NCBI GenBank assembly: GCA_964516545.1
Contig: CAZEXO010000004.1
Coordinates: forward strand, 1-50,933
DNA: 50,933 nucleotides
Source: an uncultured Melioribacteraceae bacterium
Lineage (GTDB): Bacteria > Bacteroidota > Ignavibacteria > Ignavibacteriales > Melioribacteraceae
Direction: 5' to 3'
Both the position numbers and the translations under genes were made by a program. The notes beneath the pieces were generated by a model. That model saw only the letters and a list, made by a program, of their open reading frames with translations, had not been told where the DNA came from and made no database searches. Shown here piece after piece: positions 34,481 through 50,933 of the stretch (its first letter is position 1; each line of letters begins with the position of its first letter).

Positions 34481-35607
34481 GAATTCTTTCTTGGGGTTTT
34501 TAATGATTGTTGATAAATATCAATCACTTTGTCAGTCAGGTATTCAACGTCAAAATATTCAACAGCTCTTTTTCTTCCTGAAAGTCCGAATTGTTCCCTT
34601 TTATCTTTTGAAAGAATTAATAACCTGAGTTTTTCTGCAAGATCACTTGCGTTTTGTTTTTGAAAAAAGTATCCGGTTTCATTGTTGATCACGATATCCA
34701 AAACTCCATCTGAATTTGAGCAGACAACAGGCTTAGCCATGCTCATGGCTTCAACGAGAGCAATTCCGAAAGCTTCAGAATGAGAAGGAAAAGCAAATAT
34801 ATCCATAGATGAAAGTATGTCCGGTGTATCACTCCTGAACCCCGTGAATATTATCTTTTCGTTCAGGGAATATTTTTTAACCATTTCAATTATTGATTTA
34901 CCGTATTCATCCTCGCCGCGGCTTGGTTCGCCGACAATCATAAATTTCAGATTATTAAATTCAGCCGATAAAATTCCGGCAGCTTCAATAAATTCTTCAT
35001 GACCTTTCCCGGGACTGAAACGGGCAAGCATTCCAACCACAATTTCATTTTCATTTATTCCTAATTCATTTCTTGCTAATTCTCTTTTGCCTTTTGAAGG
35101 ATCGAATTTTTTCGTGTCAACGGAATTATGTAAAAGTAATATTTTATTTTCGGTTAACGGACATGTATCAAGAAGATTTGATTTTATAACATTGCTTATT
35201 GCCAAAGCAAAAGTAACTCTGTTATAAATTATCCTGTGTAAGAAATCTTTCTTGATAATAAAAGAGCCAACCTGTTTAGTTAATAATAAGGGGATGTTTT
35301 TCGAAATCATTTTAAGAGCCGGACTTAAAATCCATAAGTCTTTTGATGCCTGAGTGTGGACAAGATCATAATTGTTTTTTTTTATCAGCGAAAATACTTT
35401 TAAAACCGAGAGAGGATGAAAATAACCGGTGGCTTTTATTCCGTGGACTGTGATCCCTTTTTCCTTAGCCTGCTTAAAAATTTTAGAATCTGTAAAACAC
35501 AAAAGTTCCGTGTGAATATTTCTTTTTAGGAGTTGTTCGACGGAGGTAATAGTGAACATTTCCATTCCACCCCAACTTCTGGAGAGGCATGAATAAAGTA
35601 TTTTCAT
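34477..35607 (-). CDS. glycosyltransferase family 4 (GT-B)
   Basis: I chose the start at the internal ATG 35607 (MKILYSCLSRSWGGMEMF), which forms an ATGA overlap with the upstream stop. C-terminal FAFPSHSEAFGIALVEAM (the E-x7-E region). Confidence 0.9.
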   Translation of the reverse strand: MKILYSCLSRSWGGMEMFTITSVEQLLKRNIHTELLCFTDSKIFKQAKEKGITVHGIKATGYFHPLSVLKVFSLIKKNNYDLVHTQASKDLWILSPALKMISKNIPLLLTKQVGSFIIKKDFLHRIIYNRVTFALAISNVIKSNLLDTCPLTENKILLLHNSVDTKKFDPSKGKRELARNELGINENEIVVGMLARFSPGKGHEEFIEAAGILSAEFNNLKFMIVGEPSRGEDEYGKSIIEMVKKYSLNEKIIFTGFRSDTPDILSSMDIFAFPSHSEAFGIALVEAMSMAKPVVCSNSDGVLDIVINNETGYFFQKQNASDLAEKLRLLILSKDKREQFGLSGRKRAVEYFDVEYLTDKVIDIYQQSLKTPRKNS

Positions 35608-36938
35608 GGGTAGAGTTTCTCTATTTTTGATCCTTTGAAATAGTGGATTAGTATCTCGTCGAATTGATATCCGGTTTCGCTCATCACTGCGGCGCCTATC
35701 TGACAGAGTCCGACGCCATGTCCCCATCCCGCGCCGTATAAAATAAACTTTTCGGGAATTTCATTTACGATGTTTTTCCGCTCAACAACAAACGCTGAAC
35801 TGTAAAGATGCGATTCGGAAAGCGAACGTCTTATTTCAAGTTCCTTGCCAATTGTAACGGTCTTTTTTGTGCCGACAATCTTTAGTTTTATTATTCGGGA
35901 TGAGTTTCCTCGTTCAAGAGGCTCCAGATTTTTTATCTCGCCAAAATCAATACCTGTTCTTTTTTTTATCAGTTCTTTCAGATCATTCTGAGTGTATTCA
36001 ATCTTCCAACGGTAGAAATTTTTTGTCTCCTGATCGAAATCAACAAGTACCTGAGTTAAAATTTTTTCATCAGTGGTGTTACAAAAAGCAGCCGGTTTAT
36101 TTTTAATCCATTTCTCTGCGTTCTGTTCAAATGTAAAATCTGTGTTGTAATTATCCGGTTCAAACTTATAATCAGGCGCAACACTAAGATAATTGTGTTT
36201 AACATGCTGCCAAACATTTTCAAAGTTTTCCGTTAGTCCGCCGCAGCATTTTGAATAACGTGTATCGCATATTTCATCTTTATATTTGAGAACCAGACCT
36301 CTGGTAGCGCTGATGGCTTCCTGGGCAGTTTTTGAAATTACTTTTGTGATACCCTGATAACGCTGGCAATGATCGTCGGCGCATACATCATAACTTTTGT
36401 GATCTTCGCGGTCATACCATTTGATAATTTCATTTTCATTCGTGATCATTCCCTGAGTAGTTACATCTCGCTTTTTATTCGTTTCCATTTGGGAGAGAAT
36501 CCAGCTTCGCGATACGATGGCGTGTGTTTTTAAAAACTCAAGTGAACTGTGAGGACTCATTTCAGATGAAATAACACTTGTTAAATATTCTTCGAGCGGT
36601 AACTCGTTTATTGCGGTAAGTTTGTTATCTTCAATAATAAGTTTGAGGTTTCCGGGAAATCGCTGGTGTTCTTTCCGTTCCCAGTGAAAGTTTTTTCCAA
36701 TGACAACATTTTTTAACTGAATGGAACCTGTTTCGAAATCAACCGGTCGGAACGATACTTCACCGCTATGAAAAAAATCTGTATCCTTGAAATTGATTTT
36801 TATGGAACCCTCTTTAATCGTAGCTGTCATTTTTCCTTTCACCGGTTTGCTGATTTTATCATACGCGTACCCGCCGAATAAAATGAATTCAATTTCCGGG
36901 GCTGATAAAATGCCGACTCTTATTAAAGGTTCGTTCAT
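35604..36938 (-). CDS. SpoIID/LytB domain protein
   Basis: 444 aa. Conserved YSKCCGGLTE and GAGWGHGVGLCQIGA motifs of the SpoIID family. Confidence 0.85.
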   Translation of the reverse strand: MNEPLIRVGILSAPEIEFILFGGYAYDKISKPVKGKMTATIKEGSIKINFKDTDFFHSGEVSFRPVDFETGSIQLKNVVIGKNFHWERKEHQRFPGNLKLIIEDNKLTAINELPLEEYLTSVISSEMSPHSSLEFLKTHAIVSRSWILSQMETNKKRDVTTQGMITNENEIIKWYDREDHKSYDVCADDHCQRYQGITKVISKTAQEAISATRGLVLKYKDEICDTRYSKCCGGLTENFENVWQHVKHNYLSVAPDYKFEPDNYNTDFTFEQNAEKWIKNKPAAFCNTTDEKILTQVLVDFDQETKNFYRWKIEYTQNDLKELIKKRTGIDFGEIKNLEPLERGNSSRIIKLKIVGTKKTVTIGKELEIRRSLSESHLYSSAFVVERKNIVNEIPEKFILYGAGWGHGVGLCQIGAAVMSETGYQFDEILIHYFKGSKIEKLYP

Positions 36939-37120
36939 GTTTAATTTCTTACTTTTTTATTCTACGCAAATATGGTCATTTTGAGAGAGTTTTGCACGCG
37001 TTTGTTGGCGCTGGTTTAGGACCGCCCGCCCTGGCAAATTCCACAATTAAATTCTTGTGTATTAATATTTATATCATAATTTGTGCTATCATATAATTAT
37101 CAATACGTGGAGTTAGCTAA

Positions 37121-40100
37121 ATGGGGGACATTTTTAACTTCTGTTTATTGGGAATTTTTCTGACCCAGTCAATTTTTTTTTCTGCGAAAGTCACAGCTCA
37201 GTCATCAGGAACAGGTTTGATAATCAATGAGATTATGCACAGCCCAACGAGTCCTGAGCCTGAATGGATTGAGATTTATAATTGTTCGCAGGATTCAATA
37301 AATCTGAATGGTTTTGCATTCGATGATAACAAAAACAACCCCCAAACAATTATTTTAAATGAATATTATATTCACAGCGAAGAGTATTTGATTCTCTCCC
37401 GTAATCTTCAAGTTGCTGATAACTACTCATATTCTTTTAATTACATTTGTCCCAAATGGCCTTTATTTACTAATGAAGATGAAGTGAAATTATTCAATGC
37501 CTCAGGCGAACTCATTGATTCGGTTTCATACAGTAGTTCCTGGGGAGGTAAAAGCGGGAAATCAATGGAACGAATTTCTTTCGACGGAGATAGCAACAAT
37601 AAAAATAATTGGGGAACATCAATTGCCGGTGAAGGCGCTACTCCGGGAAAGTATAATTCTATTTCACCGAAAGATTATGATCTCGCTGTCACAGATATCG
37701 GGTTTACTCCCATGGTAGGAATTGAAGACTCAGTAGTGATTGTTCGGGCTTACATTTCTAATTTAGGAAAAAAAACAGCAGACAATTTCTATGTAGTAAT
37801 TATGAATGGACAAGATATTCTATCAGAGGAGAATTTTTATAATTTTCAACCAGGAGATGGCACAACAGTATTTGCTGAAATAAAGAATTTACAATTAGGG
37901 GAATTTATAATCGAATGTTACCTGGGGTTCAGCAGTGACATGAATTATGTGAACAACTCGCTTTCGAAAAAACTGACAGTGCTTCCCAAAGTATATTCTT
38001 ACAATGATCTTGTAATAAATGAAATAATGTTCGAGCCGTATGACGACGAGCCTGAATGGTTTGAGGTTGTTAATACAAGCAACAAAAAAATAAATCTTTC
38101 CGGCTGGACAATTGCTGATGAATATCGCTCCATCAAATTGCCGGATACTTCGTTTTATTTGTTGCCGAGCGAATATCTTGTTATAAGTGCGAAAGATAAT
38201 CTGGAAAGTTTTTATGAGGAAATTCCCGCAAGAATTCTTAAAGTAAATCTTCCTTCTCTTAATAATTTATCAGATGTGGTTGCATTATATGATCATTACC
38301 ATAATAAAATTGACAGCGTTCATTACTCGAAAAAATGGGGTGGCGGGAAAACATTTTCGCTTGAGCGAATAAGTTATAATTCTGATTCCAATGATTCTCT
38401 TAATTGGCAGACATGTTTTAGTAAAACAAGAGGAACTCCGGGGAAAACTAACTCACTTAGTTATAAATTATTTGACATTGAGTTAGCGCGATTAGAAACA
38501 GACAGTTCTTATGTGATTTTGGGAAATAGTCTCGCGATAAACGCAACAGTTGTAAATAAAGGACGTAATAAACCTGCTGATTTTCAACTAACATTATTTC
38601 ATGACAGAAATAATAATTCGCTTTATGAGACAGAGGAGATAATTATTAATCAGAATTATGCATTTTCATCTGCTGAAGATTCACTGAAAATCAGATTAGT
38701 GTTTGATGGATTGTTACCGGGTAAAAATAATTTTCAGGTAGTGATTTCAGAGGAGATGGATGAGGAAACAGAAAACAACTCGCTTACTCTGTCTGTCGAC
38801 TGCATTGAATTAAGGATGAATCCGGGCGACATAATTGTAAATGAAATAATGTTCGCACCGGTTGGAAATGAAGAGGAATGGATTGAATTATTCAACACCA
38901 CCAACAAGTATATTTCGCTGAGAGGAATTTTTATTTGTGATAACCGAAGTGATTTCAGATGGAATAAAGATAACCAGAAAATAAAAGCAAAAAATTTTCT
39001 GGTAATTACCCGAAGTTTTGACAGCATGGAAAAGTACGGCAAGTCAGGTGATTTTATTGAATGTAATTTTCCTTCATTAAATAACAACGGGGATTGTGTT
39101 ATAATAAAAGATTCGCTCGGACGAACAATTACACGTCTTGAATATAATTCTGCTTGGGGAGGCGGAAATGGAAAATCTCTTGAAAGAGTTTCAACTGATA
39201 CACAAGCGAATGATTCGCTAAATTGGAAAAGTTCAAACAGTGAAATAGGCGCAACTCCATGGAGAACAAATTCAGTCTCGCAAAAAGACTACGATATAAA
39301 AATAGAAAAGCTAATAACTAATCCTGAACAGCCGAAACCCGGTGATGAATTATCTTTCATGGTTCAGATCAAAAATATCGGGAAAATTAGTTCAACCACT
39401 AAAATAGAAATTTATGAAACCGCACAAGGAAAAATAAAACAGATTTATTCAGGGGGAATTATCCAGTTAATTCCGGGCGAAGGAAAGGATATACATATCA
39501 GCAAATATTTAAAATGCACCGGTGTACATGATTTAACAGTAGAATGTTCTTCGGAAAATGATGAGGAACCGCGAAATAATAAAATATCTCAAAAAATATA
39601 CCCGTCAATTGAAAACTCAATGTTGTTAATAAACGAGATAATGTATCAACCCATTAATGGTGAACCTGAATGGATTGAATTATACAACAACAGTGATTTT
39701 GAAATTCCGCTTGAGGGGTTGGTGATTAGCGATATCTTATCAACACCGGCAAGAACAGAATTAAAAAGTTCGCAAAAGATATCGCCCCGTTCTTATTGCG
39801 TAATTTCAAAAGATAAAAGTCTTTCAACTCATCATGACAATGTTCCAAACATGATAATTAACTCATTCGCAAATCTAAATAACACTCTTGACGGTGTTGT
39901 AGTAACTGACTATTACAATCACATGATTGACTCAGTTTTTTATGGAAGCAGATTCAAATCGAAAGAAGGATATTCTCTGGAACGTATTTCAACGGATGTT
40001 CTTTCCAATGACTCGTTGAATTGGATGTCCTCGGAAGATTCGGAAAGAAGTACACCCGGGATAATAAATTCGATGACCAATTGCGGAGTTGACTTGTCGA

Positions 40101-42229
40101 TAAAACTATTAAATTGTTTTCCGTTAAATCCAGTTGTCGGTGAAAAAATCTCTCTTGAAATTCAGGTGGAAAACCTCGGACTATTTGACTGTCCACGAGG
40201 TACAATAAATATTTACACGATAAATGAAAATAAAGAGCTGTTAAAAAGTTTACCTACAGAGATAATCAAGCGGAAAGAAATTAAGTGTTACAATTGTTGT
40301 GAATTGATTGTACTTGAAAGGAATACTGAATTTTTTGCTGAAGTGATCAGTTCGTCGGATACCTTATTATCGAATAATAGTATTAACTTTAGCATAAAAG
40401 TAGGACCGCCTCGGGGGAGTATATTAATTAATGAATTCATGAGCAACGCTGCCGAAGGGCAGGATGAATGGATTGAAATTTTTAATTCCTCAAATTATGA
40501 GATTGATCTTGGTGGATGGTTTATTACGGATAATTCTAAAAGTGCAAAAAAAACCTTTTGTGAAAAAGGATGTACACTTTATCCCGGAGAGTATTTTGTT
40601 ATTTGTAAAGATACCTCCTTAAGAAGTACATTAATCAAAGAGGGAATTAAATGCGATGTTGTTGACTTTGCATCTCTGAATAATACAAGTGAAGATGAAA
40701 TTATTATCTATGATTCGAGAGGATTTACAATTGACAGTTTATTTTATGATAGTTCGTGGAATATTGAAAAAGGGTTTTCCAAGGAAAAAATTGTCTCCCG
40801 CGAAAACTCATGTTATAAAAATAACTGGTCTACTTCCATCAGCATAAATGGAGGAACACCGGGTCGCATTAATTCAGTATCTGGATTAATACCTGTTGAA
40901 ATAAACTCGCTGGTGATTAATGAAATAATGTTTAATCCGTCATCAACGAACTGCGATTATTTGGAAATTCTGAATGTCAGCGATGAGAGCATCGAGCTTG
41001 CTTCCTGTTTTCTTATGATTAATGGAAATCAGATTCCGTTAAATAATTATCAGTTATATCTTCATCCTCAGGAATATTTCATTATTTCACGTGATTCTTC
41101 AGTGCTCAATAACTATCCGAAAATAATTGATGATTGGAAAATCAACATAACAAGTAACAGTTCATTTTCATTAACCAATACAAAGCTGGAAATTACTCTG
41201 AAAGATATTTTCAACAATGTAATTGATTCGGTTTATTATGATGTTTCGGGAATATCTTCGGACTATTATAAAAACAGATCACTCGAAAGAATTAATTCAC
41301 AAGATTATTCTTGTGATTGTCAGAACTGGTATCCTTCCGTTAACAACCGCGGGGGCACACCGGGCGAAACCAACTCGGTTACGGAATTACAAAACATAAA
41401 TGCGAATTCATTAGTGATAAATGAAATTATGTTTGATCCTTCTGCTGATAATTCTGAGTTTATTGAGATACATAATAAATCCTCTGAAAATATCGAGCTA
41501 TCCGGATGTTATGTAAGAGTTGGAAAATATTCGTACGAACTGACTAATTCCCTCACAAATTTATCTCCCGGAGATTATTTTGTTTTTGCTTCCGACTCTT
41601 CTTTAGTAAATAATTATTCATGGTTGAGCACAGAAAGTAAATGTTTTATCCATGGGAATAGCGGATTTAGTCTTCCGAATACATCAGGCGAAATCGCGAT
41701 ATTTGATCATTGGAATAATAAAATAGATTCGGTTCATTACGAAAATACTTTTCACAATCCGAATTTAGTGACAAATAAAAACACGTCTCTTGAACGAATC
41801 AACACCGGATTGTCAGCTCTTGATAATTCCAATTGGAATAGCAGCGTTGATTTATGGGGAGCGACACCCGGGAAAAAGAACTCAATCCACATCGAAGTTG
41901 TTAAGTCAGATACAAAGTTTGAAATTAACCCGAATCCTTTTTCACCGGATAATGACGGATTTGAAGATTTCACAATCATAAGTTACAATTTACCGAAAGT
42001 TATTTCCCGTTATCGTCTGAGAATATTCGACAGGGAAGGACGGCTGGTAAAAACTCTGGTAAACAATGAGCTGACAGGAAGCAGCGGGGAGGTGATTTTC
42101 AACGGACTTGATGAATCGGGACGCGCCTTACGAATAGGAATTTACATTGCTCTTTTTGAGGCAAGCGATCCATTCAGCGGATATCAGGAAATAATTAAAA
42201 AACCTTTTGTGGTGGCGAGAAAATTATAG
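37121..42229 (+). CDS. giant secreted protein: 7 lamin-tail domains (LTD), 4 CARDB-like spacers, C-terminal FlgD-Ig/T9SS-like sorting domain
   Basis: 1702 aa. Signal peptide ending AQ/SS. Seven modules each start (L/V)INE(I/F)M..P....EWIE(I/L)(Y/F)N and end SLERI...NW.....GTPG..NS. The C-terminus (41918-42226) reads NPNPFSPDNDGFEDFT...LRIFDREGRLVKTL...GIYI. Confidence 0.9.
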   Translation: MGDIFNFCLLGIFLTQSIFFSAKVTAQSSGTGLIINEIMHSPTSPEPEWIEIYNCSQDSINLNGFAFDDNKNNPQTIILNEYYIHSEEYLILSRNLQVADNYSYSFNYICPKWPLFTNEDEVKLFNASGELIDSVSYSSSWGGKSGKSMERISFDGDSNNKNNWGTSIAGEGATPGKYNSISPKDYDLAVTDIGFTPMVGIEDSVVIVRAYISNLGKKTADNFYVVIMNGQDILSEENFYNFQPGDGTTVFAEIKNLQLGEFIIECYLGFSSDMNYVNNSLSKKLTVLPKVYSYNDLVINEIMFEPYDDEPEWFEVVNTSNKKINLSGWTIADEYRSIKLPDTSFYLLPSEYLVISAKDNLESFYEEIPARILKVNLPSLNNLSDVVALYDHYHNKIDSVHYSKKWGGGKTFSLERISYNSDSNDSLNWQTCFSKTRGTPGKTNSLSYKLFDIELARLETDSSYVILGNSLAINATVVNKGRNKPADFQLTLFHDRNNNSLYETEEIIINQNYAFSSAEDSLKIRLVFDGLLPGKNNFQVVISEEMDEETENNSLTLSVDCIELRMNPGDIIVNEIMFAPVGNEEEWIELFNTTNKYISLRGIFICDNRSDFRWNKDNQKIKAKNFLVITRSFDSMEKYGKSGDFIECNFPSLNNNGDCVIIKDSLGRTITRLEYNSAWGGGNGKSLERVSTDTQANDSLNWKSSNSEIGATPWRTNSVSQKDYDIKIEKLITNPEQPKPGDELSFMVQIKNIGKISSTTKIEIYETAQGKIKQIYSGGIIQLIPGEGKDIHISKYLKCTGVHDLTVECSSENDEEPRNNKISQKIYPSIENSMLLINEIMYQPINGEPEWIELYNNSDFEIPLEGLVISDILSTPARTELKSSQKISPRSYCVISKDKSLSTHHDNVPNMIINSFANLNNTLDGVVVTDYYNHMIDSVFYGSRFKSKEGYSLERISTDVLSNDSLNWMSSEDSERSTPGIINSMTNCGVDLSIKLLNCFPLNPVVGEKISLEIQVENLGLFDCPRGTINIYTINENKELLKSLPTEIIKRKEIKCYNCCELIVLERNTEFFAEVISSSDTLLSNNSINFSIKVGPPRGSILINEFMSNAAEGQDEWIEIFNSSNYEIDLGGWFITDNSKSAKKTFCEKGCTLYPGEYFVICKDTSLRSTLIKEGIKCDVVDFASLNNTSEDEIIIYDSRGFTIDSLFYDSSWNIEKGFSKEKIVSRENSCYKNNWSTSISINGGTPGRINSVSGLIPVEINSLVINEIMFNPSSTNCDYLEILNVSDESIELASCFLMINGNQIPLNNYQLYLHPQEYFIISRDSSVLNNYPKIIDDWKINITSNSSFSLTNTKLEITLKDIFNNVIDSVYYDVSGISSDYYKNRSLERINSQDYSCDCQNWYPSVNNRGGTPGETNSVTELQNINANSLVINEIMFDPSADNSEFIEIHNKSSENIELSGCYVRVGKYSYELTNSLTNLSPGDYFVFASDSSLVNNYSWLSTESKCFIHGNSGFSLPNTSGEIAIFDHWNNKIDSVHYENTFHNPNLVTNKNTSLERINTGLSALDNSNWNSSVDLWGATPGKKNSIHIEVVKSDTKFEINPNPFSPDNDGFEDFTIISYNLPKVISRYRLRIFDREGRLVKTLVNNELTGSSGEVIFNGLDESGRALRIGIYIALFEASDPFSGYQEIIKKPFVVARKL
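37214..41884 (+). repeat. diverged in-frame module array (LTD repeats)
   Basis: LTD modules at 37214-37660, 38006-38455, 38828-39274, 39620-40072, 40418-40876, 40907-41377 and 41408-41884. Start-to-start spacing is 792, 822, 792 and 798 nt, then 489 and 501 nt. Conservation shows only as short islands at the DNA level, e.g. AATGAAATAATGTT. Confidence 0.8.
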
Positions 42230-42555
42230 TTTCTGGCAGCAAATATTTTTATCACGATGAAGTTATTTTCATAATTTGAATGAGGATTTTGTATCTTCAT
42301 GTAAGTGAAAGGAATTAAAAGAAATAGCATGGGAGTGAATGTGAAATTAACACTGGAAAAATTATTATTAATAAAAGAAGAAATTGCGAAAATTTATTTT
42401 CGTATTGTTATTAAAAGGCTTGTTGCCGCCTGGATAAAAAATGAGTTGAAGTGGAGTAAAAACTAATTTCTCATCTTCTATAGTCCCGGCCTGATTGGAT
42501 TACGCAAATGATTTTCTTAAATTTATCCCCCCTTTAGAATTAAGGCTAATGAAAT

Positions 42556-43200
42556 ATGAAGAACTGTTTTATTTATTTATATATTATAACGATCGCACTT
42601 GTATTTTCATCCTGTGACAAAAACATTGAGAATTTATCAGTTAGCAAGAGCAGGGTAATCGATTATTATGAATCCGGCGAATATGAAGATAACCTGCAAG
42701 CAGCGCTTGAACCGGCTTATGAATTTCTTTCTGAGCGGGCTGATGTTGTGAATCCTGCCGTAATATTCGATGTTGATGAAACAATTCTCTCAAATTATGG
42801 TTACATAAAAAGTATTGATTTCGGATATGAGAGAAAATTATGGGATGACTATCTGGCAAACATTGATGCAAAACCGATAAACAACACAGTCGATTTATAC
42901 AAAAGTCTGATTGAAAAAAATATCGCCGTGATTTTTCTTACCGCTCGCTCACAGGAAACATATCATCATACATTTGAAAATCTAAAAACAGTTGGAATTA
43001 ACAAATTCGATACGCTCATCTGCCGTGCCGAAGAATATGAAAAAATTTCCTCATCCGAATTCAAAGAACTTGAACGTATACGCTTAACTGAAACAGGTTA
43101 TAACATAATAATGTGTGTTGGCGATCAGGATTCCGATATGCAGGGAAAGAACACCGGAGTAAAAATCAAACTACCGAATAAAATGTATATTAATAATTAA
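42556..43200 (+). CDS. HAD-superfamily acid phosphatase (class B/C, subfamily IIIB-like) lipoprotein
   Basis: 214 aa. Lipobox VFSSC. HAD motif I VIFDVDETILSN, motif II LTARS, motif IV GDQDSD. Confidence 0.8.
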   Translation: MKNCFIYLYIITIALVFSSCDKNIENLSVSKSRVIDYYESGEYEDNLQAALEPAYEFLSERADVVNPAVIFDVDETILSNYGYIKSIDFGYERKLWDDYLANIDAKPINNTVDLYKSLIEKNIAVIFLTARSQETYHHTFENLKTVGINKFDTLICRAEEYEKISSSEFKELERIRLTETGYNIIMCVGDQDSDMQGKNTGVKIKLPNKMYINN

Positions 43201-43323
43201 TTGTCCGGGTGAGCCGTCGTTGTTCCCGGAAATGTTATTGAATTAGTGAAGTCAAATTTCCATCGGTTCACTTAACAAAAATCGCTATTTTAAAACGATC
43301 CTAAAACGAATAAAAATTCACGC

Positions 43324-46300
43324 ATGAAAAAATTCGCCGTGTTTTTCATTCTTTTCTTATTCACACCAGATGTTTTCGGTTTAGCTGAGAAGGAAAGAGA
43401 TAATTTCCGAATCGAGCGTCTCTCGCTTGAAGAAGGAATAGCTCACAACATGGTTTTTTCTATTGTTCAGGATCAACGCGGGTTTATATGGATTGGAACA
43501 GCGCTCGGTCTGATCAAATACGACGGCAACCGTTACACAAACTATCGGACTTCCATTGAGGATACAAATTCTCTTTCAAACGATGATATAACAACTATAA
43601 TTGAAGACAGCGAAGGACGACTGTGGATAGGCACTTACAGCGGCGGTCTTAATATTTACGATAAAGATGCAGGTTTATTCACAAGACTTGATGTTGAATT
43701 TTTCGGGTTGGGTGACAAATGGAACGGACTTGTCTGGAGTCTTGCCGAAGACACTAAAGGCAACATTTGGGTTGGCACTCTCGACGCGGGAGTAATCAAG
43801 ATAAATAAAAGTACTCTCCAATTTAAAATTTATATGAGTGATCAGGATAATCCTGCTTCAATAAGTGTTAATGCAATCAGCAAAATTCTGACAGATAAAA
43901 ACGGCGAGGTCTGGCTCGGATCAAACGACGGTATACTTCACAGATATAATTCCACAAAAGATAACTTCACAAGATTCACTGAACTTGACAATGGACGACA
44001 GACTTCTTTTGCGGTTATAACCGTAATATTTGAAGGAAGAGAAAATGTGTTTTGGGTCGGAACAGAAAAAGGCTTGTACGTTTTTGATAAGAAGAAAAAT
44101 AAATATTTGAGTTCAGGAGATTCTGAATTTTCTGCTTTAACTGGTGAATTGATTAATTGTGTTTATGAGGATCGTAGCGGAAGAATATGGATTGGCAGTG
44201 GAAATGGTCTTCATGTTTTTGACAGTAAACTTAAATTAATCACTCACCTAAAACATGTTGAAAATGATCCTCACTCGTTAAGCAGCGATGTTGTTGTAGC
44301 TGTTTACGAAGATATGTCGGGCGTTGTCTGGGTTGGTACTTATTTGGGCGGAGTTGACAAAATTTACGTTAACCAGGATAAATTTAATTTGTATAGAAAA
44401 AACGCGATGCTTGAAAGTACGTTCAGCGATAATCATATTTTTGACATATCGGAAGATGAGAAGGGAATAATCTGGCTTGCTACGAATCGCGGGCTCAACA
44501 GTTTCAATAAAGAAAAAAACGAAATAAATATTTATTCCAGCGTGGCAAAATTACCCGGACTACTAAGCTCTGATAATGTTCGTTCACTCGCTGTTGATAA
44601 GGATAATAATTTATGGATTGGTACAAACAACGGGCTTGACAAGCTTAATCTTGATTCAAAAAAAATATCTCATTACAAGTATAATTTTCTCAATCGTTTT
44701 AGCCTAAGTGATAACAGAGTTACTGAAATTCTTGTTGACAGAAAAGGGACCGTGTGGGTAGGTACATTTAAAGGACTGAATAAATACTATTCCGGCAGTG
44801 ATGAGTTTATTCGTTATCTTCCGGGACTAATGGAGCCTTCAACAAAAGAGGAAAGAATCGAATCTCTTTTTGAAGACAAAGAGGGAAATATCTGGATTGG
44901 TACGAACCGCGGATTGTTCATGAAAAAACCTTTGAGTGATGAAATGGTTTCTTATCGACATGATCCAAAAGTCAAAGGAACATTGAGTCATAATTATATT
45001 TATTCAATACATGAAAGCCAAAAAGGAGATTTGTGGCTCGGTACCGGCGGCGGACTGAATAAGTTTCTTAAGCAGAAAAATAGTTTTGTTTATTATGATG
45101 AAAACCATGGATTACCCGACAGAGTAATTAAAGGAATTCTTGAAGACGACAAAGGTTTTCTTTACTTAAGCACTAATAAAGGATTATCAAGATTCGATCC
45201 TGAGACTGAAACTTTTGTTAATTACGATATCGGCGACGGATTACAAAGTAACATGTTTGTTGACGGCGCTTATCTGAAACGAAAGAACGGAGAAATGTTA
45301 TTCGGAGGCATTAATGGATTTAATTCTTTTTTCCCCTCGAAACTGAAACCCAAATCTTTCGTCCCGCCTATTTATATTACTTCAATAAAAAGATTTGATG
45401 AACAATTGATATTCGAGAAGGAAATTACAGCGGTAAAAGAAATCATTCTTGATTATTCTGATAACTTTATAACCTTTGAATTTGCCGCTCTTGATTATGT
45501 TAATCCGGCAAAAATTGATTACGCTTACAGGCTGATTGGAATAGATGATAACTGGGTTTACTCCGGAAACACAACAAAAGCGAGTTACACAAATCTTCCT
45601 CCCGGTGATTATATTTTTGAGGTGAAAGCTACGAACAGTGATAAAATATGGAGCGATAGAGTGCTGGCGGTTTCATTAATTATCACTCCCCCCTTCTGGA
45701 GAACATGGTGGTTCAATTCATTGTTGGTGTTTCTTCTTGTCGGAATATTTTATCTCGTGCATAAATTAAGAGTGAAAAGTGAATTAAGAAAGGCTATGGA
45801 AATCGAAGAAGTGCGCCTGCAGGAAAATGAAAGTGTAAGAAAAAAAGCCGCTGACGATTTTCATGATGAATTGGGCTATCGCCTAACTAAAATATCGCTC
45901 TATGCTGAAATTCTTAAAAAGGATTCCTGCAAATCTGAAGAAGAGAAGAAGGAATATCTGGAACACATCGGTGATATCACTAAAAGTCTTTCACATGGGG
46001 TAAGAGATTTTATCTGGACACTTGACCCGGTTAAAGACACTCTTTATGATACGATTATCAGACTGAAAGATTTCGGCGATGACCTTTTTGATAAAACCGG
46101 AATTGCCTTCAGAGTGAAAGGTATTTCGCATGAGTTCGAAAACGTAAAACTTACTATGGATTGGCGAAGACAAATCACACTCATTTATAAAGAAGCGATG
46201 AATAATGTTTTGAAATATTCCGGAGCCGAGAACGTTCTGTTGGAATTTTCTTTTACCGATGATTTATTGAAGATATCTCTTCAAGATGATGGAAAAGGCT

Positions 46301-46440
46301 TTGATATTGTAAAGGAATCGAGGGGACGGGGTTTACGCAACATTGTTACGCGCGCGAAAAATATTAATTGTAAAGCTGAAATTCTTTCTCTAAACAACCA
46401 GGGAACAACCGTATTGTTTGAAGGACGAATAACGATATAA
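43324..46440 (+). CDS. sensor histidine kinase with Reg_prop beta-propeller repeats and Y_Y_Y domain
   Basis: 1038 aa with a signal peptide. Many W(I/V)GT..GL repeats. One TM helix (WWFNSLLVFLLVGIFYLV). HisKA_3-like FHDELGYRL. HATPase motifs NNVLKYS, DDGKGF, GRGLRN. Confidence 0.9.
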   Translation: MKKFAVFFILFLFTPDVFGLAEKERDNFRIERLSLEEGIAHNMVFSIVQDQRGFIWIGTALGLIKYDGNRYTNYRTSIEDTNSLSNDDITTIIEDSEGRLWIGTYSGGLNIYDKDAGLFTRLDVEFFGLGDKWNGLVWSLAEDTKGNIWVGTLDAGVIKINKSTLQFKIYMSDQDNPASISVNAISKILTDKNGEVWLGSNDGILHRYNSTKDNFTRFTELDNGRQTSFAVITVIFEGRENVFWVGTEKGLYVFDKKKNKYLSSGDSEFSALTGELINCVYEDRSGRIWIGSGNGLHVFDSKLKLITHLKHVENDPHSLSSDVVVAVYEDMSGVVWVGTYLGGVDKIYVNQDKFNLYRKNAMLESTFSDNHIFDISEDEKGIIWLATNRGLNSFNKEKNEINIYSSVAKLPGLLSSDNVRSLAVDKDNNLWIGTNNGLDKLNLDSKKISHYKYNFLNRFSLSDNRVTEILVDRKGTVWVGTFKGLNKYYSGSDEFIRYLPGLMEPSTKEERIESLFEDKEGNIWIGTNRGLFMKKPLSDEMVSYRHDPKVKGTLSHNYIYSIHESQKGDLWLGTGGGLNKFLKQKNSFVYYDENHGLPDRVIKGILEDDKGFLYLSTNKGLSRFDPETETFVNYDIGDGLQSNMFVDGAYLKRKNGEMLFGGINGFNSFFPSKLKPKSFVPPIYITSIKRFDEQLIFEKEITAVKEIILDYSDNFITFEFAALDYVNPAKIDYAYRLIGIDDNWVYSGNTTKASYTNLPPGDYIFEVKATNSDKIWSDRVLAVSLIITPPFWRTWWFNSLLVFLLVGIFYLVHKLRVKSELRKAMEIEEVRLQENESVRKKAADDFHDELGYRLTKISLYAEILKKDSCKSEEEKKEYLEHIGDITKSLSHGVRDFIWTLDPVKDTLYDTIIRLKDFGDDLFDKTGIAFRVKGISHEFENVKLTMDWRRQITLIYKEAMNNVLKYSGAENVLLEFSFTDDLLKISLQDDGKGFDIVKESRGRGLRNIVTRAKNINCKAEILSLNNQGTTVLFEGRITI

Positions 46441-46504
46441 TTGAAAACGAGAGAGTAATTGTTTATTATCAAAATGTCGAATTTAATTATTTACCGGGAG
46501 CGAA

Positions 46505-46966
46505 GTGATAACAGTAGCCATTGTGGAAGATCATCAGGAAATACGCGATAGTCTCGCGTTATTAATTAATGCCACGGAAGGATATGAATGTCCGGCAACT
46601 TATTCAGATTGTGAATCTGCAATTGAAGGCATTGAAGAAAATCTTCCCGACGTTGTTCTGATGGATATTGGTTTGCCCGGAATGTCGGGTATTGAAGGAA
46701 TAAAAAAAATTAAACAGAAACATCCCGATATAGATTTTATAATACTATCAATCCATGAAAATGACGAGAACGTATTCGAATCGCTCTGTTCCGGCGCTAC
46801 CGGTTACCTAACAAAAGAGACCCCGCAAAGCTCACGGACCCCAGCCTCGTCATTTACCATCCCGTCCGTGTTTGCGACGGGCATATCATCGTCACAAACG
46901 GTGACCAGACAGAAACTATCCGTGACAATATGCTGGCTGAAAACAGCTTTCACACGTCACTATTAA
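46505..46966 (+). CDS. NarL/LuxR-type response regulator, receiver domain only; 3' part replaced at the breakpoint
   Basis: GTG start after GGGAG. The receiver motifs are intact (VAIVEDH, VVLMDIGLPGMSG, GATGYLTK) up to about 46816. After that the frame runs into GC-rich foreign sequence and gives non-homologous residues to a stop at 46966. No HTH domain is present. Confidence 0.8.
   Translation: MITVAIVEDHQEIRDSLALLINATEGYECPATYSDCESAIEGIEENLPDVVLMDIGLPGMSGIEGIKKIKQKHPDIDFIILSIHENDENVFESLCSGATGYLTKETPQSSRTPASSFTIPSVFATGISSSQTVTRQKLSVTICWLKTAFTRHY
46810..46820. other. compositional and reading-frame breakpoint
   Basis: Receiver-domain homology ends at about 46816 (frame 2). IMP-cyclohydrolase homology (DPAKLTDPSLVIYHPVRV) begins at about 46819 (frame 1). 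G+C jumps at the same place. Confidence 0.8.
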
Positions 46967-47346
46967 AGCGCGACTTCGAGCCGGACGCACCCAATTATAC
47001 GCCGCGCATATCGGGCCTCGTCCTGCCGGACGGAAGCTATAAGCTGTCGATTCTCAAAAGCCTTGACGGCAACCCATCCTGCTGCTGCCGCTATTTCTAT
47101 GAATACGACACCGCGGTTGCCGGCATGGGGCATTTCATCCATACGTACAAATGTGACGGCGATCCTATCCCCTCCTTCGAGGGAGAGCCGAAACCTGTCG
47201 TCATAAACGGCACCCTCGGTGAGCTGACAAGCAGCGTGTGGAACGCGCTGAACGAGAACAACAGGGTTTCCCTGTACGGCATGTCGAAGGACATTCAAAC
47301 CGGTGAAGCAGAAAGCATCATCATCAATAAAAACCTTAGAAATTAG
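46819..47346 (+). CDS. IMP cyclohydrolase, PurO-type (PF07826-like), 5'-truncated fragment
   Basis: The frame is open from 46765 with no start codon before 46930. The translation DPAKLTDPSLVIYHPVRVCDGHIIVTNGDQTETI...FEPDAPNYTPRISG matches my memory of the central and C-terminal part of bacterial PurO-like enzymes. The N-terminal ~60-70 aa appear to be missing; that figure is an estimate. Confidence 0.7.
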   Translation, partial: DPAKLTDPSLVIYHPVRVCDGHIIVTNGDQTETIRDNMLAENSFHTSLLKRDFEPDAPNYTPRISGLVLPDGSYKLSILKSLDGNPSCCCRYFYEYDTAVAGMGHFIHTYKCDGDPIPSFEGEPKPVVINGTLGELTSSVWNALNENNRVSLYGMSKDIQTGEAESIIINKNLRN

Positions 47347-47375
47347 TAAAATAATCTCCGCAGGAGGTTTTCAGC

Positions 47376-48545
47376 ATGAAAGAGCTTGAACTCAAATACG
47401 GCTGCAACCCGAACCAGAAGCCCTCGCGCATCTTCATGACGAACGGTCATCTGCCCATCGAGGTACTCGGCGGCAAGCCGGGCTACATCAATTTCCTCGA
47501 CGCCTTCAACAGCTGGCAGCTTGTCCGCGAACTGAGCGCAGCAACGAATCTCCCCTGCGCCGCCTCCTTCAAGCACGTCTCCCCCGCCGGCGCCGCCGTC
47601 GGCCTCCCCCTGACCGATATCGATAAAAAGATATACTTCGTCGAAGATATGTCCTTATCGCCTCTCGCTTGCGCCTATGTCCGGGCACGGGGCGCTGACC
47701 GCGTCAGCTCCTACGGCGACTGGGCTGCGCTGTCCGACACGTGTGACGAGGAGACGGCGGCCGTTCTTGCCCTGGAGGTCTCCGACGGCGTCATCGCTCC
47801 AGGATATACGCAAAAGGCGCTGGAAATTCTCAGAACAAAACGCAAGGGTTCCTACAACATTATCAAAATCGACCCGAACTATATCCCGGAACAAATCGAA
47901 CATAAGGACGTCTTCGGCGTCACCTTCGAGCAGGGTCGGAACGAGCTTAAAATCGGTGCGGATATGCTCTCCGATATTGTCACGAAAAACAAGGACCTCA
48001 CCGACAGTGCCAAACGCGACCTCATCGTCGCGCTCATCACCCTCAAGTATACGCAGTCCAATTCCGTCTGCTATGTGAAGGACGGCCAGGCCATCGGTAT
48101 CGGCGCCGGCCAGCAAAGCCGCATCCACTGTACACGCCTTGCAGGCAGCAAAGCCGACCGGTGGTGGCTGCGCCGCCACCCGAAGGTGCTGGGCCTGAAA
48201 TTCAAAGATATCGGCCGCCCCACGCGCGACACGACCATCGATATCTATCTGACGGACGAGTACGAGGACGTCACGGCGGACGGCTCCTGGGAAGGGCTTT
48301 TTGAGGAAAGGCCGCCTGTATTGACAGAAGCCGAGAAGAAAGATTGGATTTCGAGCTTGAGCGGGGCCGCTCTCGGCAGTGACGCCTTCTTCCCCTTCAG
48401 CGATAACATTGAGCGCGCAAAAAAATCCGGCGTCCAATACATCGCCGAGCCCGGCGGCTCCATCCGCGACGACAGTGTTATCGAAACCTGCGACAAGTAC
48501 GGCATGGTCATGGCATTCACGGGGATACGGCTGTTCCATCATTAA
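47376..48545 (+). CDS. AICAR formyltransferase (PurH, AICARFT domain only)
   Basis: 389 aa. AGGAGG SD. LKYGCNPNQ, SFKHVSPAG and QPGG-type EPGGSIRD motifs of the PurH C-terminal domain. The MGS-like IMPCH domain is absent. Confidence 0.9.
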   Translation: MKELELKYGCNPNQKPSRIFMTNGHLPIEVLGGKPGYINFLDAFNSWQLVRELSAATNLPCAASFKHVSPAGAAVGLPLTDIDKKIYFVEDMSLSPLACAYVRARGADRVSSYGDWAALSDTCDEETAAVLALEVSDGVIAPGYTQKALEILRTKRKGSYNIIKIDPNYIPEQIEHKDVFGVTFEQGRNELKIGADMLSDIVTKNKDLTDSAKRDLIVALITLKYTQSNSVCYVKDGQAIGIGAGQQSRIHCTRLAGSKADRWWLRRHPKVLGLKFKDIGRPTRDTTIDIYLTDEYEDVTADGSWEGLFEERPPVLTEAEKKDWISSLSGAALGSDAFFPFSDNIERAKKSGVQYIAEPGGSIRDDSVIETCDKYGMVMAFTGIRLFHH

Positions 48546-48573
48546 TGTCTTTTAGGGGCGGGAGGTCATCATC

Positions 48574-49836
48574 ATGAACGTTCTTGTCGTTGGCGGCGGC
48601 GGACGCGAGCACGCCATCTGCTGGGCGCTCCGGAAATCGCCGCGTGTTGAAAAGCTCTACTGCGCGCCTGGAAACGGCGGGATCGCAGGAATTGCCGAAT
48701 GCGTTGACATCAAGGCCACCGATATCGACGGTATCCTGAGCTATGTCAAGTCAAACGCCATCGATTTCGTCATGGTCGCGCCGGACGATCCGCTGGCACT
48801 GGGTCTTGTCGACGCTCTTGAAAACGCCGGCGTCCGCGCCTTCGGCCCACGCGCAAATGCAGTGCTTATTGAAGCGAGCAAGGTGTTCTCAAAAAGCCTC
48901 ATGAAGAAATACGGCATCCCGACGGCGGAATACGAGGTTTTCTCGGATATCGGCAAGGCAATTGCTTATATTAACGAAAAGGGCGCGCCGATTGTTGTCA
49001 AGGCCGACGGGCTGGCACTGGGTAAGGGCGTCGTCGTCGCCCAGGATGCCGACACGGCTGTCAATGCCGTCAAGTCCATGATGCTGGATAAGAAATTCGG
49101 CAGCAGCGGACTGAACGTCGTCATCGAGGAATTTATGACAGGCCCCGAGGTCACGGTATTGGCATTTACGGACGGCAGGTCGATCATCCCCATGCTGTCG
49201 TCTCAGGACCACAAGCGCGTCAATGACAACGACGAGGGTCCGAACACCGGCGGCATGGGCGCTATTTGCCCCAGTCCCAACTACACGCCGGAGATCGCGG
49301 AAACCTGCATGAAAACGATCTTCTTGCCGACAATCGAGGCAATGAAAAAGGAAGGCCGCGTCTTTAAGGGTGTCATCTATTTTGGCTTGATGCTCACCCC
49401 CAAGGGACCCCGTGTCGTGGAGTACAACGCGCGCTTCGGCGACCCGGAGACGCAGCCGATCCTGTCAATGCTGGAAACCGATATTCTCGAAATATTTGAA
49501 GCTGTTGTTGACGAAAAGCTTGATCGGATACAGATCAAATGGCGGCCCGGCGCCGCCTGCACAATAGTCATGGCCAGCGGCGGATACCCCGAAAGCTACG
49601 AAAAGGGCTATGAAATCACCGGCCTAGACGCCATTCCGGAAGACATCACCGTGTTCCACGCCGGGACAAAGCTTATGGGCGGCAAGTACCACACAAACGG
49701 CGGGCGCGTCTTGGGTGTTACGGCGACAGCCGATTCCCTCCGGAATGCAGTCAGGCGCGCTTACGAGGGCGTGAAAAGCATCAGTTTTAATAAGGCGCAT
49801 TACAGGACAGATATCGGGCGAATCAATACAGACTGA
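48574..49836 (+). CDS. purD: phosphoribosylamine--glycine ligase
   Basis: 420 aa. MNVLVVGGGGREHAI, ATP-grasp core, EYNARFGDPETQ. GGGAGG SD. Confidence 0.95.
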   Translation: MNVLVVGGGGREHAICWALRKSPRVEKLYCAPGNGGIAGIAECVDIKATDIDGILSYVKSNAIDFVMVAPDDPLALGLVDALENAGVRAFGPRANAVLIEASKVFSKSLMKKYGIPTAEYEVFSDIGKAIAYINEKGAPIVVKADGLALGKGVVVAQDADTAVNAVKSMMLDKKFGSSGLNVVIEEFMTGPEVTVLAFTDGRSIIPMLSSQDHKRVNDNDEGPNTGGMGAICPSPNYTPEIAETCMKTIFLPTIEAMKKEGRVFKGVIYFGLMLTPKGPRVVEYNARFGDPETQPILSMLETDILEIFEAVVDEKLDRIQIKWRPGAACTIVMASGGYPESYEKGYEITGLDAIPEDITVFHAGTKLMGGKYHTNGGRVLGVTATADSLRNAVRRAYEGVKSISFNKAHYRTDIGRINTD

Positions 49837-49870
49837 GCAAAAGGCGGTCGGCAGAAAAGGAGCAGACAAC

Positions 49871-50770
49871 ATGCCTAAATCAAGAAAAACTCGGTTATTC
49901 TGGATTCGAGCTAAACAAGCAGCCAGAAAAAGCCCGTGGCTTTTCACCTGTTACTGGATTTTGAGGCTGATGGTTGTCGGCGTTCTGATCGCACAGATCA
50001 TGAACGGAGATTACGGCAATGCGTTCATATGTATCCTGACGCTTGTTCTTTTTATGATACCGACCTTTGTGGAAAAACGAATCAAGGTCGACGTGCCGGA
50101 TACGCTGGAAGTCATCGTTCTCCTCTTTATTTTTGCAGCCCAAATACTTGGAGAGATACGTGAATTCTACCTCAATGTCCCCGGCTGGGACACGATGCTA
50201 CATACTGTCAATGGCTTTTTGTGCGCGGCCATCGGTATTGCAATGATCGATATTCTGAACAGGCATGGCAGGTTCTCCATCAGTATGTCCCCCGCTTTTG
50301 TGGCGCTCGTGGCTTTTTGTTTTTCCATGACTATCGGCGTTTTGTGGGAATTCATCGAGTACGGTGCCGATATGCTTTTCCGATACGACATGCAAAAGGA
50401 CACGCTGGTATCCTCCATCAGCTCTGTTTATATCAATCCGGAAGGTAGAAACGTACCTGTTGTTATCTCGGATATTTTGAAAACGGTCGTCTCCGGTCGT
50501 GTCAACGGGCAGCCGGCTGAAATAGTTATAAACGGCTATCTCGATATCGGGATAATCGATACGATGAAGGACTTATTCGTTAATTTTTTTGGCGCGGTAG
50601 TATTTTCTGTCATCGGGTATATCTATATTAAAAACCGCGGTGAGAGCAAAAACAGCAGGTTTGTCAGGCGTTTTATCCTGACTAAAATCACCGCCGCTGA
50701 GACAAGGACACAGCGCGCAAACACCGAAAAAGCCAGTAAAAACAATAAAAGGCCGGATGGAGATTCATGA
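49871..50770 (+). CDS. polytopic membrane protein, function unknown
   Basis: 299 aa. AAGGAG SD. About 6 hydrophobic helices. WDTMLH and WEFIEYG motifs are reminiscent of DUF2238/YjdF-like proteins, at low certainty. Confidence 0.7.
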   Translation: MPKSRKTRLFWIRAKQAARKSPWLFTCYWILRLMVVGVLIAQIMNGDYGNAFICILTLVLFMIPTFVEKRIKVDVPDTLEVIVLLFIFAAQILGEIREFYLNVPGWDTMLHTVNGFLCAAIGIAMIDILNRHGRFSISMSPAFVALVAFCFSMTIGVLWEFIEYGADMLFRYDMQKDTLVSSISSVYINPEGRNVPVVISDILKTVVSGRVNGQPAEIVINGYLDIGIIDTMKDLFVNFFGAVVFSVIGYIYIKNRGESKNSRFVRRFILTKITAAETRTQRANTEKASKNNKRPDGDS

Positions 50771-50801
50771 TTTGCTGCTTGGCTTCGGCCAATAATGTAA
50801 G

Positions 50802-50830
50802 TTGACAAGGACCCTCATATATGTTACTAT
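50802..50830 (+). promoter_or_regulatory. sigma-70/SigA-type promoter for the tRNA
   Basis: TTGACA (50802-50807), a 17-nt spacer, then TACTAT (50825-50830), about 20 nt upstream of the tRNA 5' end. Confidence 0.5.
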
Positions 50831-50849
50831 ACTTTCTGCGTCTGAGTAC

Positions 50850-50933
50850 GGAGAGATACCGAAGCGGTCATAACGGAACGGTCTTGAAAACCGTCGTACG
50901 GCAACGTACCGTGGGTTCGAATCCCACTCTCTC
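50850..50933 (+). tRNA. tRNA-Ser (anticodon UGA), 3' end clipped by the window edge
   Basis: Hand fold: acceptor GGAGAGA/TCTCTC(C), D arm CCG..CGG, anticodon stem ACGGT/ACCGT with loop CTTGAAA, long variable arm GTACG-GCAA-CGTAC, T arm GTGGG-TTCGAAT-CCCAC. Confidence 0.9.

Follow-up and report, generated by a model that had tools for sequence, protein, structure and literature searches.

The question raised by this locus is whether a contig that changes its composition abruptly in the middle of two genes records DNA taken up by one bacterium from another, or a join of two genomes that no cell ever carried. The window, i.e. the whole stretch of DNA that was analysed, is a complete NCBI contig of 50,933 bp with a left part of 46.8 kb and a right part of 4.1 kb, and the NCBI genome to which it belongs is probably a metagenome-assembled genome (MAG). 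An earlier note had placed an abrupt mid-gene breakpoint within 46790–46850 and had preferred a chimeric join to an acquired island. The breakpoint was confirmed and could be fixed to the base (46826/46827), and there is little doubt that this join inside two genes is an artefact of sequencing or assembly. The preference for a chimera is supported by native loci in other assemblies, by a junction that is a singleton, by the likeness of the right part to the end of a Clostridia pur operon and by the absence of a mobile element.

The two parts differ in every compositional measure that was applied. The G+C content is 36.4% over 1–46826 and 53.5% over 46827–50933; the hand counts previously given for four short stretches (17/60, 23/60, 42/60 and 41/60) were all exact on recount. 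A two-segment likelihood fit placed the GC change point at 46781 (range 46748–46793), slightly short of the true join on its left, a shift due to the locally high GC content of the final 45 nt of the regulator fragment. GC3 is 0.32–0.36 on the left and 0.54–0.75 on the right. Comparison of the tetranucleotide profiles of the two sides, which the earlier note had proposed, gave r = 0.19 (distance z = 21, far beyond chance), against r = 0.96 for 4-kb chunks of the left part compared with each other. The claimed shift in SD strength was also found: an SD core of at least 5 nt was present for 3/3 right genes (AGGAGGT, GGAGGT and AGGAG) and for 2/26 left ORFs. Antisense ORFs reach 295 aa on the right, and the ORF list showed long ones on that side only, as had been described. 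Separate taxonomic assignment of the sides, likewise proposed beforehand, returned a left part of Ignavibacteria/Melioribacteraceae type and a right part of Oscillospiraceae type, a difference at the phylum level.

In order to locate the join, the window was compared position by position with the native left locus; the two are equal through 46826 and unrelated from 46827. Three native loci (L001, L085 and L086, from two runs and representing two strains) all cease to align at 46826. Their identities to the window are 99.97%, 99.87% and 98.1%, and over the regulator fragment (46505–46826) all three are 100% identical to it. The fused ORF thus keeps 107 native regulator codons, ending ...GATGYLTKETP. 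The regulator homology had been thought to end at GATGYLTK (46816), a limit that the base-by-base identity with the three native loci extends by three residues (ETP) to 46826. The fused ORF 46505–46966 matches Pfam Response_reg alone (profile 1–102/111), so that the regulator does lack its HTH domain, as had been noted.

On the other side, matches of relatives to the right part start at 46819 in both tblastn and blastn searches. A blastn alignment of the closest right-side relative (L082) with the window showed that 46819 corresponds to codon 62 of a 234-aa PurO; the start codon and approximately 61 N-terminal codons are therefore missing from the purO fragment. In agreement with the earlier description of a PurO that begins mid-domain, in another frame and lacking a start codon, the IMP_cyclohyd match begins at profile position 45/192. 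The two genes had been taken to be cut about 10 nt apart; they instead share one cut point, with an 8-base overlap, GACCCCGC, at 46819–46826. The two pieces are fused head to tail in different reading frames and both genes are cut mid-domain.

Native PurO proteins read ...AFDPAKLTDPSLIIYHPVRV across this region, and within their conserved motif FDPAKLTDPSL the bases GACCCCGC code for D-P-A(2/3). The DNA of L082 reads GCATTC GAT CCC GCA AAG where the window reads AAAAGA GAC CCC GCA AAG, so that L082 carries GATCCCGC at the site of the microhomology. Judged from these alignments, GACCCCGC would be common to both parents over 8 nt, with a minimum of 5; the length of the shared stretch is bounded at 5–8 nt through L082, which has 84.6% DNA identity, and would be 5 if the true parent had GAT. 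The chance of such an overlap at a random join is 0.006 for 5 nt and 0.00014 for 8 nt.

No repeats touching 46,800–46,850 were found, and no att sites or direct or inverted repeats were found at the boundary, which lies inside two coding sequences. Pfam searches of the genes next to the boundary and of the visible 4.1-kb right block gave no integrase, recombinase or transposase. The earlier statement that no repeat, att-like site, integrase or transposase marks the boundary was thereby upheld. The junction contains neither an N run nor an overlap of the size used by assemblers. Neither the fused 153-aa 'regulator' nor the start-less purO has a biological function, both being by-products of the join, and the tail of the former is not a real protein segment; its first residue comes from the codon 46826–46828, which straddles the join. 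The coordinates of the features around the join are listed in Table 1.

Table 1. Features of the right-hand end of the window, with the junction at 46826/46827.
Feature	Coordinates	Strand	Genome	Remarks
Hybrid histidine kinase	43324..46440	+	Left	Pfam Reg_prop propeller repeats, Y_Y_Y, HisKA_3, HATPase
Regulator fragment, NarL/FixJ-type, first 107 codons	46505..46826	+	Left	Receiver domain
Junction microhomology GACCCCGC	46819..46826	+		Last 8 bases matching the native left locus
Out-of-frame tail of the fused ORF	46827..46966	+		46 non-native residues, then stop; purO read in the wrong frame
purO 3' part (archaeal-type IMP cyclohydrolase)	46819..47346	+	Right	Pfam IMP_cyclohyd 45–189/192
purH-like AICAR formyltransferase	47376..48545	+	Right	AICARFT domain only (Pfam); strong SD AGGAGGT
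purD (GAR synthetase)	48574..49836	+	Right	Pfam GARS_N/A/C; same place 3' of purH in relatives
299-aa membrane protein	49871..50770	+	Right	Weak DUF2238-like match only; NCBI-only singleton
tRNA-Ser(TGA)	50850..50933	+	Right	ARAGORN, Rfam; 3' end cut by the contig end
Junction-containing 28-mer				AACAAAAGAGACCCCGCAAAGCTCACGG; native-locus counterpart AACAAAAGAGACCCCGCCCGCTAAAATT

The hexamer GACCCC from the junction microhomology occurs once more 18 nt further on (46837–46842), where it encodes the D-P of DPSL in purO; the recurrence is probably due to chance and is not needed to explain the join.

The native continuation of the left part could be identified in independent Logan assemblies of the same Ignavibacteria-like population. 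An exact look-up showed that the kinase of the window, which is the partner of the truncated regulator, is carried by an 85,208-bp Logan contig of run SRR27370455, and the identical kinase protein lies beside an intact regulator on Logan contigs. On the SRR27370455 contig this intact regulator directly follows the kinase; it has 205 aa with Response_reg and GerE HTH domains and is followed by PAP2_C, a B12-binding protein, an M24 peptidase, TauE, Sua5 and PriA. The intact regulator protein (P0121) was found on four independent Logan contigs of 50–200 kb, two of which are 85 kb. The genes 3' of the native regulator are AT-rich, and the DNA that natively follows the breakpoint has a tetranucleotide r of 0.98 with the left part of the window and 0.17 with the right part. 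Named relatives of the intact regulator come from Ignavibacteria, Melioribacteraceae, Bacteroidota and Calditrichota MAGs and have 69–77% identity. The left gene content is that of a chromosome with housekeeping functions (AcrB/OEP efflux, tricorn protease, HflX, PhoH and an M16 peptidase); BatA, SpoIID and LTD/CHU_C were identified on the Logan contig matching the left side.

Judged by coordinates, the SRR27370455 contig covers all of the left part and extends beyond its two ends by an estimated 20 kb and 17.7 kb; its collinearity with the window was checked over 33324–46826. The NCBI assembly is more fragmented at this locus than the single 85-kb contig of Logan. The native downstream genes (PAP2_C, B12-binding protein, M24 peptidase, TauE, Sua5 and PriA) have an NCBI source and the intact regulator has none; the simplest reading would be that the native continuation lies on a second contig of this NCBI genome, which is broken at the regulator. 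Partial C-terminal regulator proteins were guessed for contig overlaps of k = 31, 55, 77, 99, 119, 127 and 141, and 0/10 were found in the protein collection. A guanylate-cyclase-domain protein (445 aa; L087, 14759–16096) was the sole native downstream protein among those checked that has no NCBI source, which suggests a further contig break or a variant in the NCBI assembly at this gene.

Everything past 46826 comes from a different organism, as the earlier note had maintained, and the Clostridia-like character that it had seen in this segment was substantiated by matches to Sporobacter/Oscillospiraceae and by the conserved 3' end of a pur operon. The proteins closest to PurO come from JGI metagenome 3300048576 (91% and 87% identity) and the best named match is Sporobacter termitidis (74%). 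PurH is 74–75% identical to the proteins of Pseudoflavonifractor, Marasmitruncus and other Oscillospirales among the matches listed, which comprise at least 600 stretches. Matches to the right side as a whole were to Sporobacter termitidis, Oscillospiraceae, Pseudoflavonifractor and Marasmitruncus. The relatives keep the order purE-purC-purF-purM-purN-purO-purH-purD with a full PurO of 234 aa; they share 79–85% nucleotide identity with the right side and have purN and a full purO upstream, as in many Oscillospirales genomes. The tetranucleotide profile of the right piece has r = 0.88–0.90 with these relatives. On the evidence of gene order and similarity, the right piece is identified as the 3' end of a pur operon of Oscillospiraceae-type Clostridia, purO'-purH-purD-membrane protein-tRNA-Ser. 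A search of the other assemblies of the collection for a same-species copy of the right side found none.

The tRNA-Ser(TGA) at the right end of the window is incomplete: the ARAGORN model runs 2 nt beyond the contig end and Rfam flags a cut at the 3' end. A conserved tRNA is a typical spot for an assembly graph to branch and for a contig to stop. The last 133 nt of the window (50801–50933) are 93% identical to the region 3' of purD in a relative (L083) whose identity elsewhere is 79%. In the right organism and in its Oscillospirales relatives (loci L002–L084) separate proteins carry out the last two purine steps, with an archaeal-type PurO (PF07826) directly 5' of an AICARFT-only PurH (Pfam profile 76–311); the split is a known arrangement and is very consistently kept as purN-purO-purH-purD.

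The junction itself was not found in any second assembly. The fused 153-aa product forms a cluster of one member on one contig among 5.8 billion clusters (∼15 billion proteins), and its next best matches are all intact regulators of ∼205 aa. The purO fragment, PurH, PurD and the membrane protein each occur, among ∼15 billion proteins, on the contig of the window alone, with NCBI as the sole source. A junction-spanning 45-mer had no match in IMG/VR. JGI metagenome contigs contained neither a codon-degenerate pattern for purO beside the join nor the 40-mer that stops at the breakpoint; these two patterns represent the flanks on each side of the join and not the junction. The insertion is absent from the four sibling Logan assemblies that carry the intact regulator.

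The explanation preferred here, with a probability of roughly 0.85, is that the window is an inter-genome chimeric contig consisting of an Ignavibacteria/Melioribacteraceae-like part (1–46826) and an Oscillospiraceae-like part (46819/46827–50933), with a template-switch molecule as its most likely origin. The contig shows a switch in composition and ribosome-binding sites, native contexts for both parts elsewhere, different taxa on the two sides and a junction that is not reproduced. With 5–8 nt, the shared stretch is much shorter than the k that any assembler uses, and a k-mer assembler could therefore not have made this mis-join from clean reads; the junction was most likely already present in a chimeric read or molecule, or was made after assembly. 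A random paste would seldom produce so long a microhomology, which speaks for a process that relies on base pairing. Polymerase template switching in vitro, during library preparation or whole-genome amplification, would generate such a molecule: a nascent strand ending ...GACCCCGC would re-anneal on DNA of the other genome. Reads from the chimeric molecule would then bridge two contig ends in a fragmented and patchy assembly. Tip clipping would remove the short dead ends of the native paths, and the 46.8-kb host part would carry the 4.1-kb foreign tail into the bin. In MDA, more than 70% of chimeric junctions show complementarity of 2–21 nt (PMC1855051), and among the errors of assembled metagenomes inter-genome translocations form a prevalent class (PMC9661791). 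The Logan assemblies use k = 31 and drop k-mers seen only once (PMC12424806). Against a chimera it can be said that a graph assembler normally cuts a low-coverage chimeric edge, or breaks the contig there, when both native paths are well covered; for the contig to stay unbroken, coverage would have to lapse close to the join in each of the two genomes, or the junction would have to be the dominant path. Genuine illegitimate recombination, too, typically shows a microhomology of this size.

The latter point leads to the alternative that Clostridial DNA was integrated, very recently and across phyla, into the regulator of an Ignavibacteria-like bacterium by microhomology-mediated illegitimate recombination, destroying both genes, and that the resulting strain dominated the sample. 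The GC-rich microhomology of 5–8 nt, GACCCCGC, is the signature expected of such an event, and de Vries and Wackernagel reportedly described in 2002 such microhomology in the illegitimate recombination of naturally transformable bacteria; in-vitro template switching predicts the same signature. An unbroken contig across the junction is easiest for a graph assembler to produce if the junction is the main path, and the finding of the right-hand species in no other assembly of the collection is what would be expected if it were present as an insert only. Against this stand the intact locus, which is present in four independent assemblies and is up to 99.97% identical to the window, and the singleton junction. 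Neither amelioration nor a mobile element is evident in the insert, and no second junction can be seen: one end is visible, and the contig stops 4.1 kb further on in a tRNA. Even under laboratory conditions, moreover, fully heterologous DNA is integrated illegitimately only in extremely rare cases: transposition during transformation, although ∼16,000 times less frequent than homologous recombination, is still the commoner event. The exchange of a regulator for a promoter-less operon fragment would also have no obvious selective value. A genuine insertion is accordingly considered unlikely.

Still less probable, and given very little weight, is a purely computational mis-join that involved no chimeric molecule and arose by scaffolding, gap-closing, contig-merging or bin-reassembly, or by a long-read assembler gluing ends. 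The greater fragmentation of the NCBI assembly here relative to the 85-kb contig of Logan and the position of the foreign piece at a contig end would suit such an origin. The join has no N run, however, and only 8 nt are shared, whereas neither merging tools nor de Bruijn assemblers work with less than 20–30 nt; an arbitrary paste would give a microhomology of 5–8 nt with P ≃ 0.006–0.0001.

The inter-genome chimera inferred above resembles the chimeric contigs of metagenomes addressed by metaMIC, DeepMAsED and ResMiCo in its two unrelated genomes, single breakpoint and abrupt switch of composition, and a short terminal foreign part that contaminates a MAG is likewise a known form (PMC9661791). 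It differs from classical chimeric contigs, which join at shared sequences longer than k (rRNA, tRNA, IS elements or strain variants), in sharing 5–8 nt only. Template-switch chimeras, produced by phi29 in MDA or by jumping PCR, have a short complementary junction as found here (Lasken and Stockwell; PMC1855051), and like the window they have no biological signal at the breakpoint and arbitrary cut positions and frames. More than 85% of MDA chimeras are, however, intramolecular inversions and the join in the window is intermolecular and head to tail. Illegitimate recombination shares with the window a few bases of GC-rich microhomology and the lack of site-specific machinery; the window has neither a visible homologous anchor nor a second junction, and the event is missing from the sibling assemblies. 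With a genomic island the window has in common a block of foreign composition beside native DNA and a nearby tRNA. It has no integrase, no att sites or direct repeats and no cargo logic, and its tRNA is of the foreign type and lies ∼4 kb off, at the far end of the foreign block and not at the boundary.

Three candidate origins were considered separately and rejected: a genomic island, because an integrase and att site are missing and the genes are cut mid-domain; a phage or plasmid, because the content consists of chromosomal housekeeping genes; and a join made artificially for the analysed sequence, because public protein data already include the fused proteins, recorded on a contig of exactly 50,933 bp.

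The biological weight of the locus is small and its value lies in quality control. The segment 46827–50933 (purO', purH, purD, membrane protein and tRNA-Ser) is contamination that should be trimmed from the genome, and the database entries for a 153-aa 'response regulator' and a 138-aa 'IMP cyclohydrolase' should be treated as artefacts. If left untrimmed, the MAG would wrongly give an Ignavibacteria-like organism Clostridial purine genes, which could be misread as an inter-phylum transfer. The case illustrates a class of chimera that is not foreseen by k-mer logic, in which a join at only 5–8 shared bases points to chimeric molecules and not to shared repeats. Were the junction real, it would offer a rare direct view of element-free illegitimate recombination between phyla (Clostridia to Ignavibacteriota) in nature, and of a transfer caught directly after integration, with a two-component regulator lost and a promoter-less fragment of a pur operon gained.

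The comparison with the Logan contigs also gave some information on the population from which the left part derives. Over the 13.5 kb compared, all 18 mismatches between the SRR27370455 contig and the window fall within 34930–36795, the other 11.6 kb being identical. This 1.9-kb stretch contains glycosyltransferase and SpoIID-like genes and may be a patch of recombination between strains or a cell-envelope locus that varies. The contig from SRR27370451 (L085), compared with 36508–46826 of the window, represents a second strain with 98.1% identity and 12 gaps; its LTD/CHU_C protein has 1703 aa compared with 1702, whereas no difference was seen in the regulator. The Ignavibacteria-like population is thus represented by two or more coexisting strains across the sibling runs. 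A full-text literature search for SRR27370455, SRR27370451, 3300048576 and Ga0498943 found no paper. In the unrelated run SRR8925742, in which the organism assembles only into contigs of ∼1.5 kb, PAP2_C was found with 99.6% DNA identity on a 1,496-bp Logan contig (L088), which brings the number of studies containing this population to at least two.
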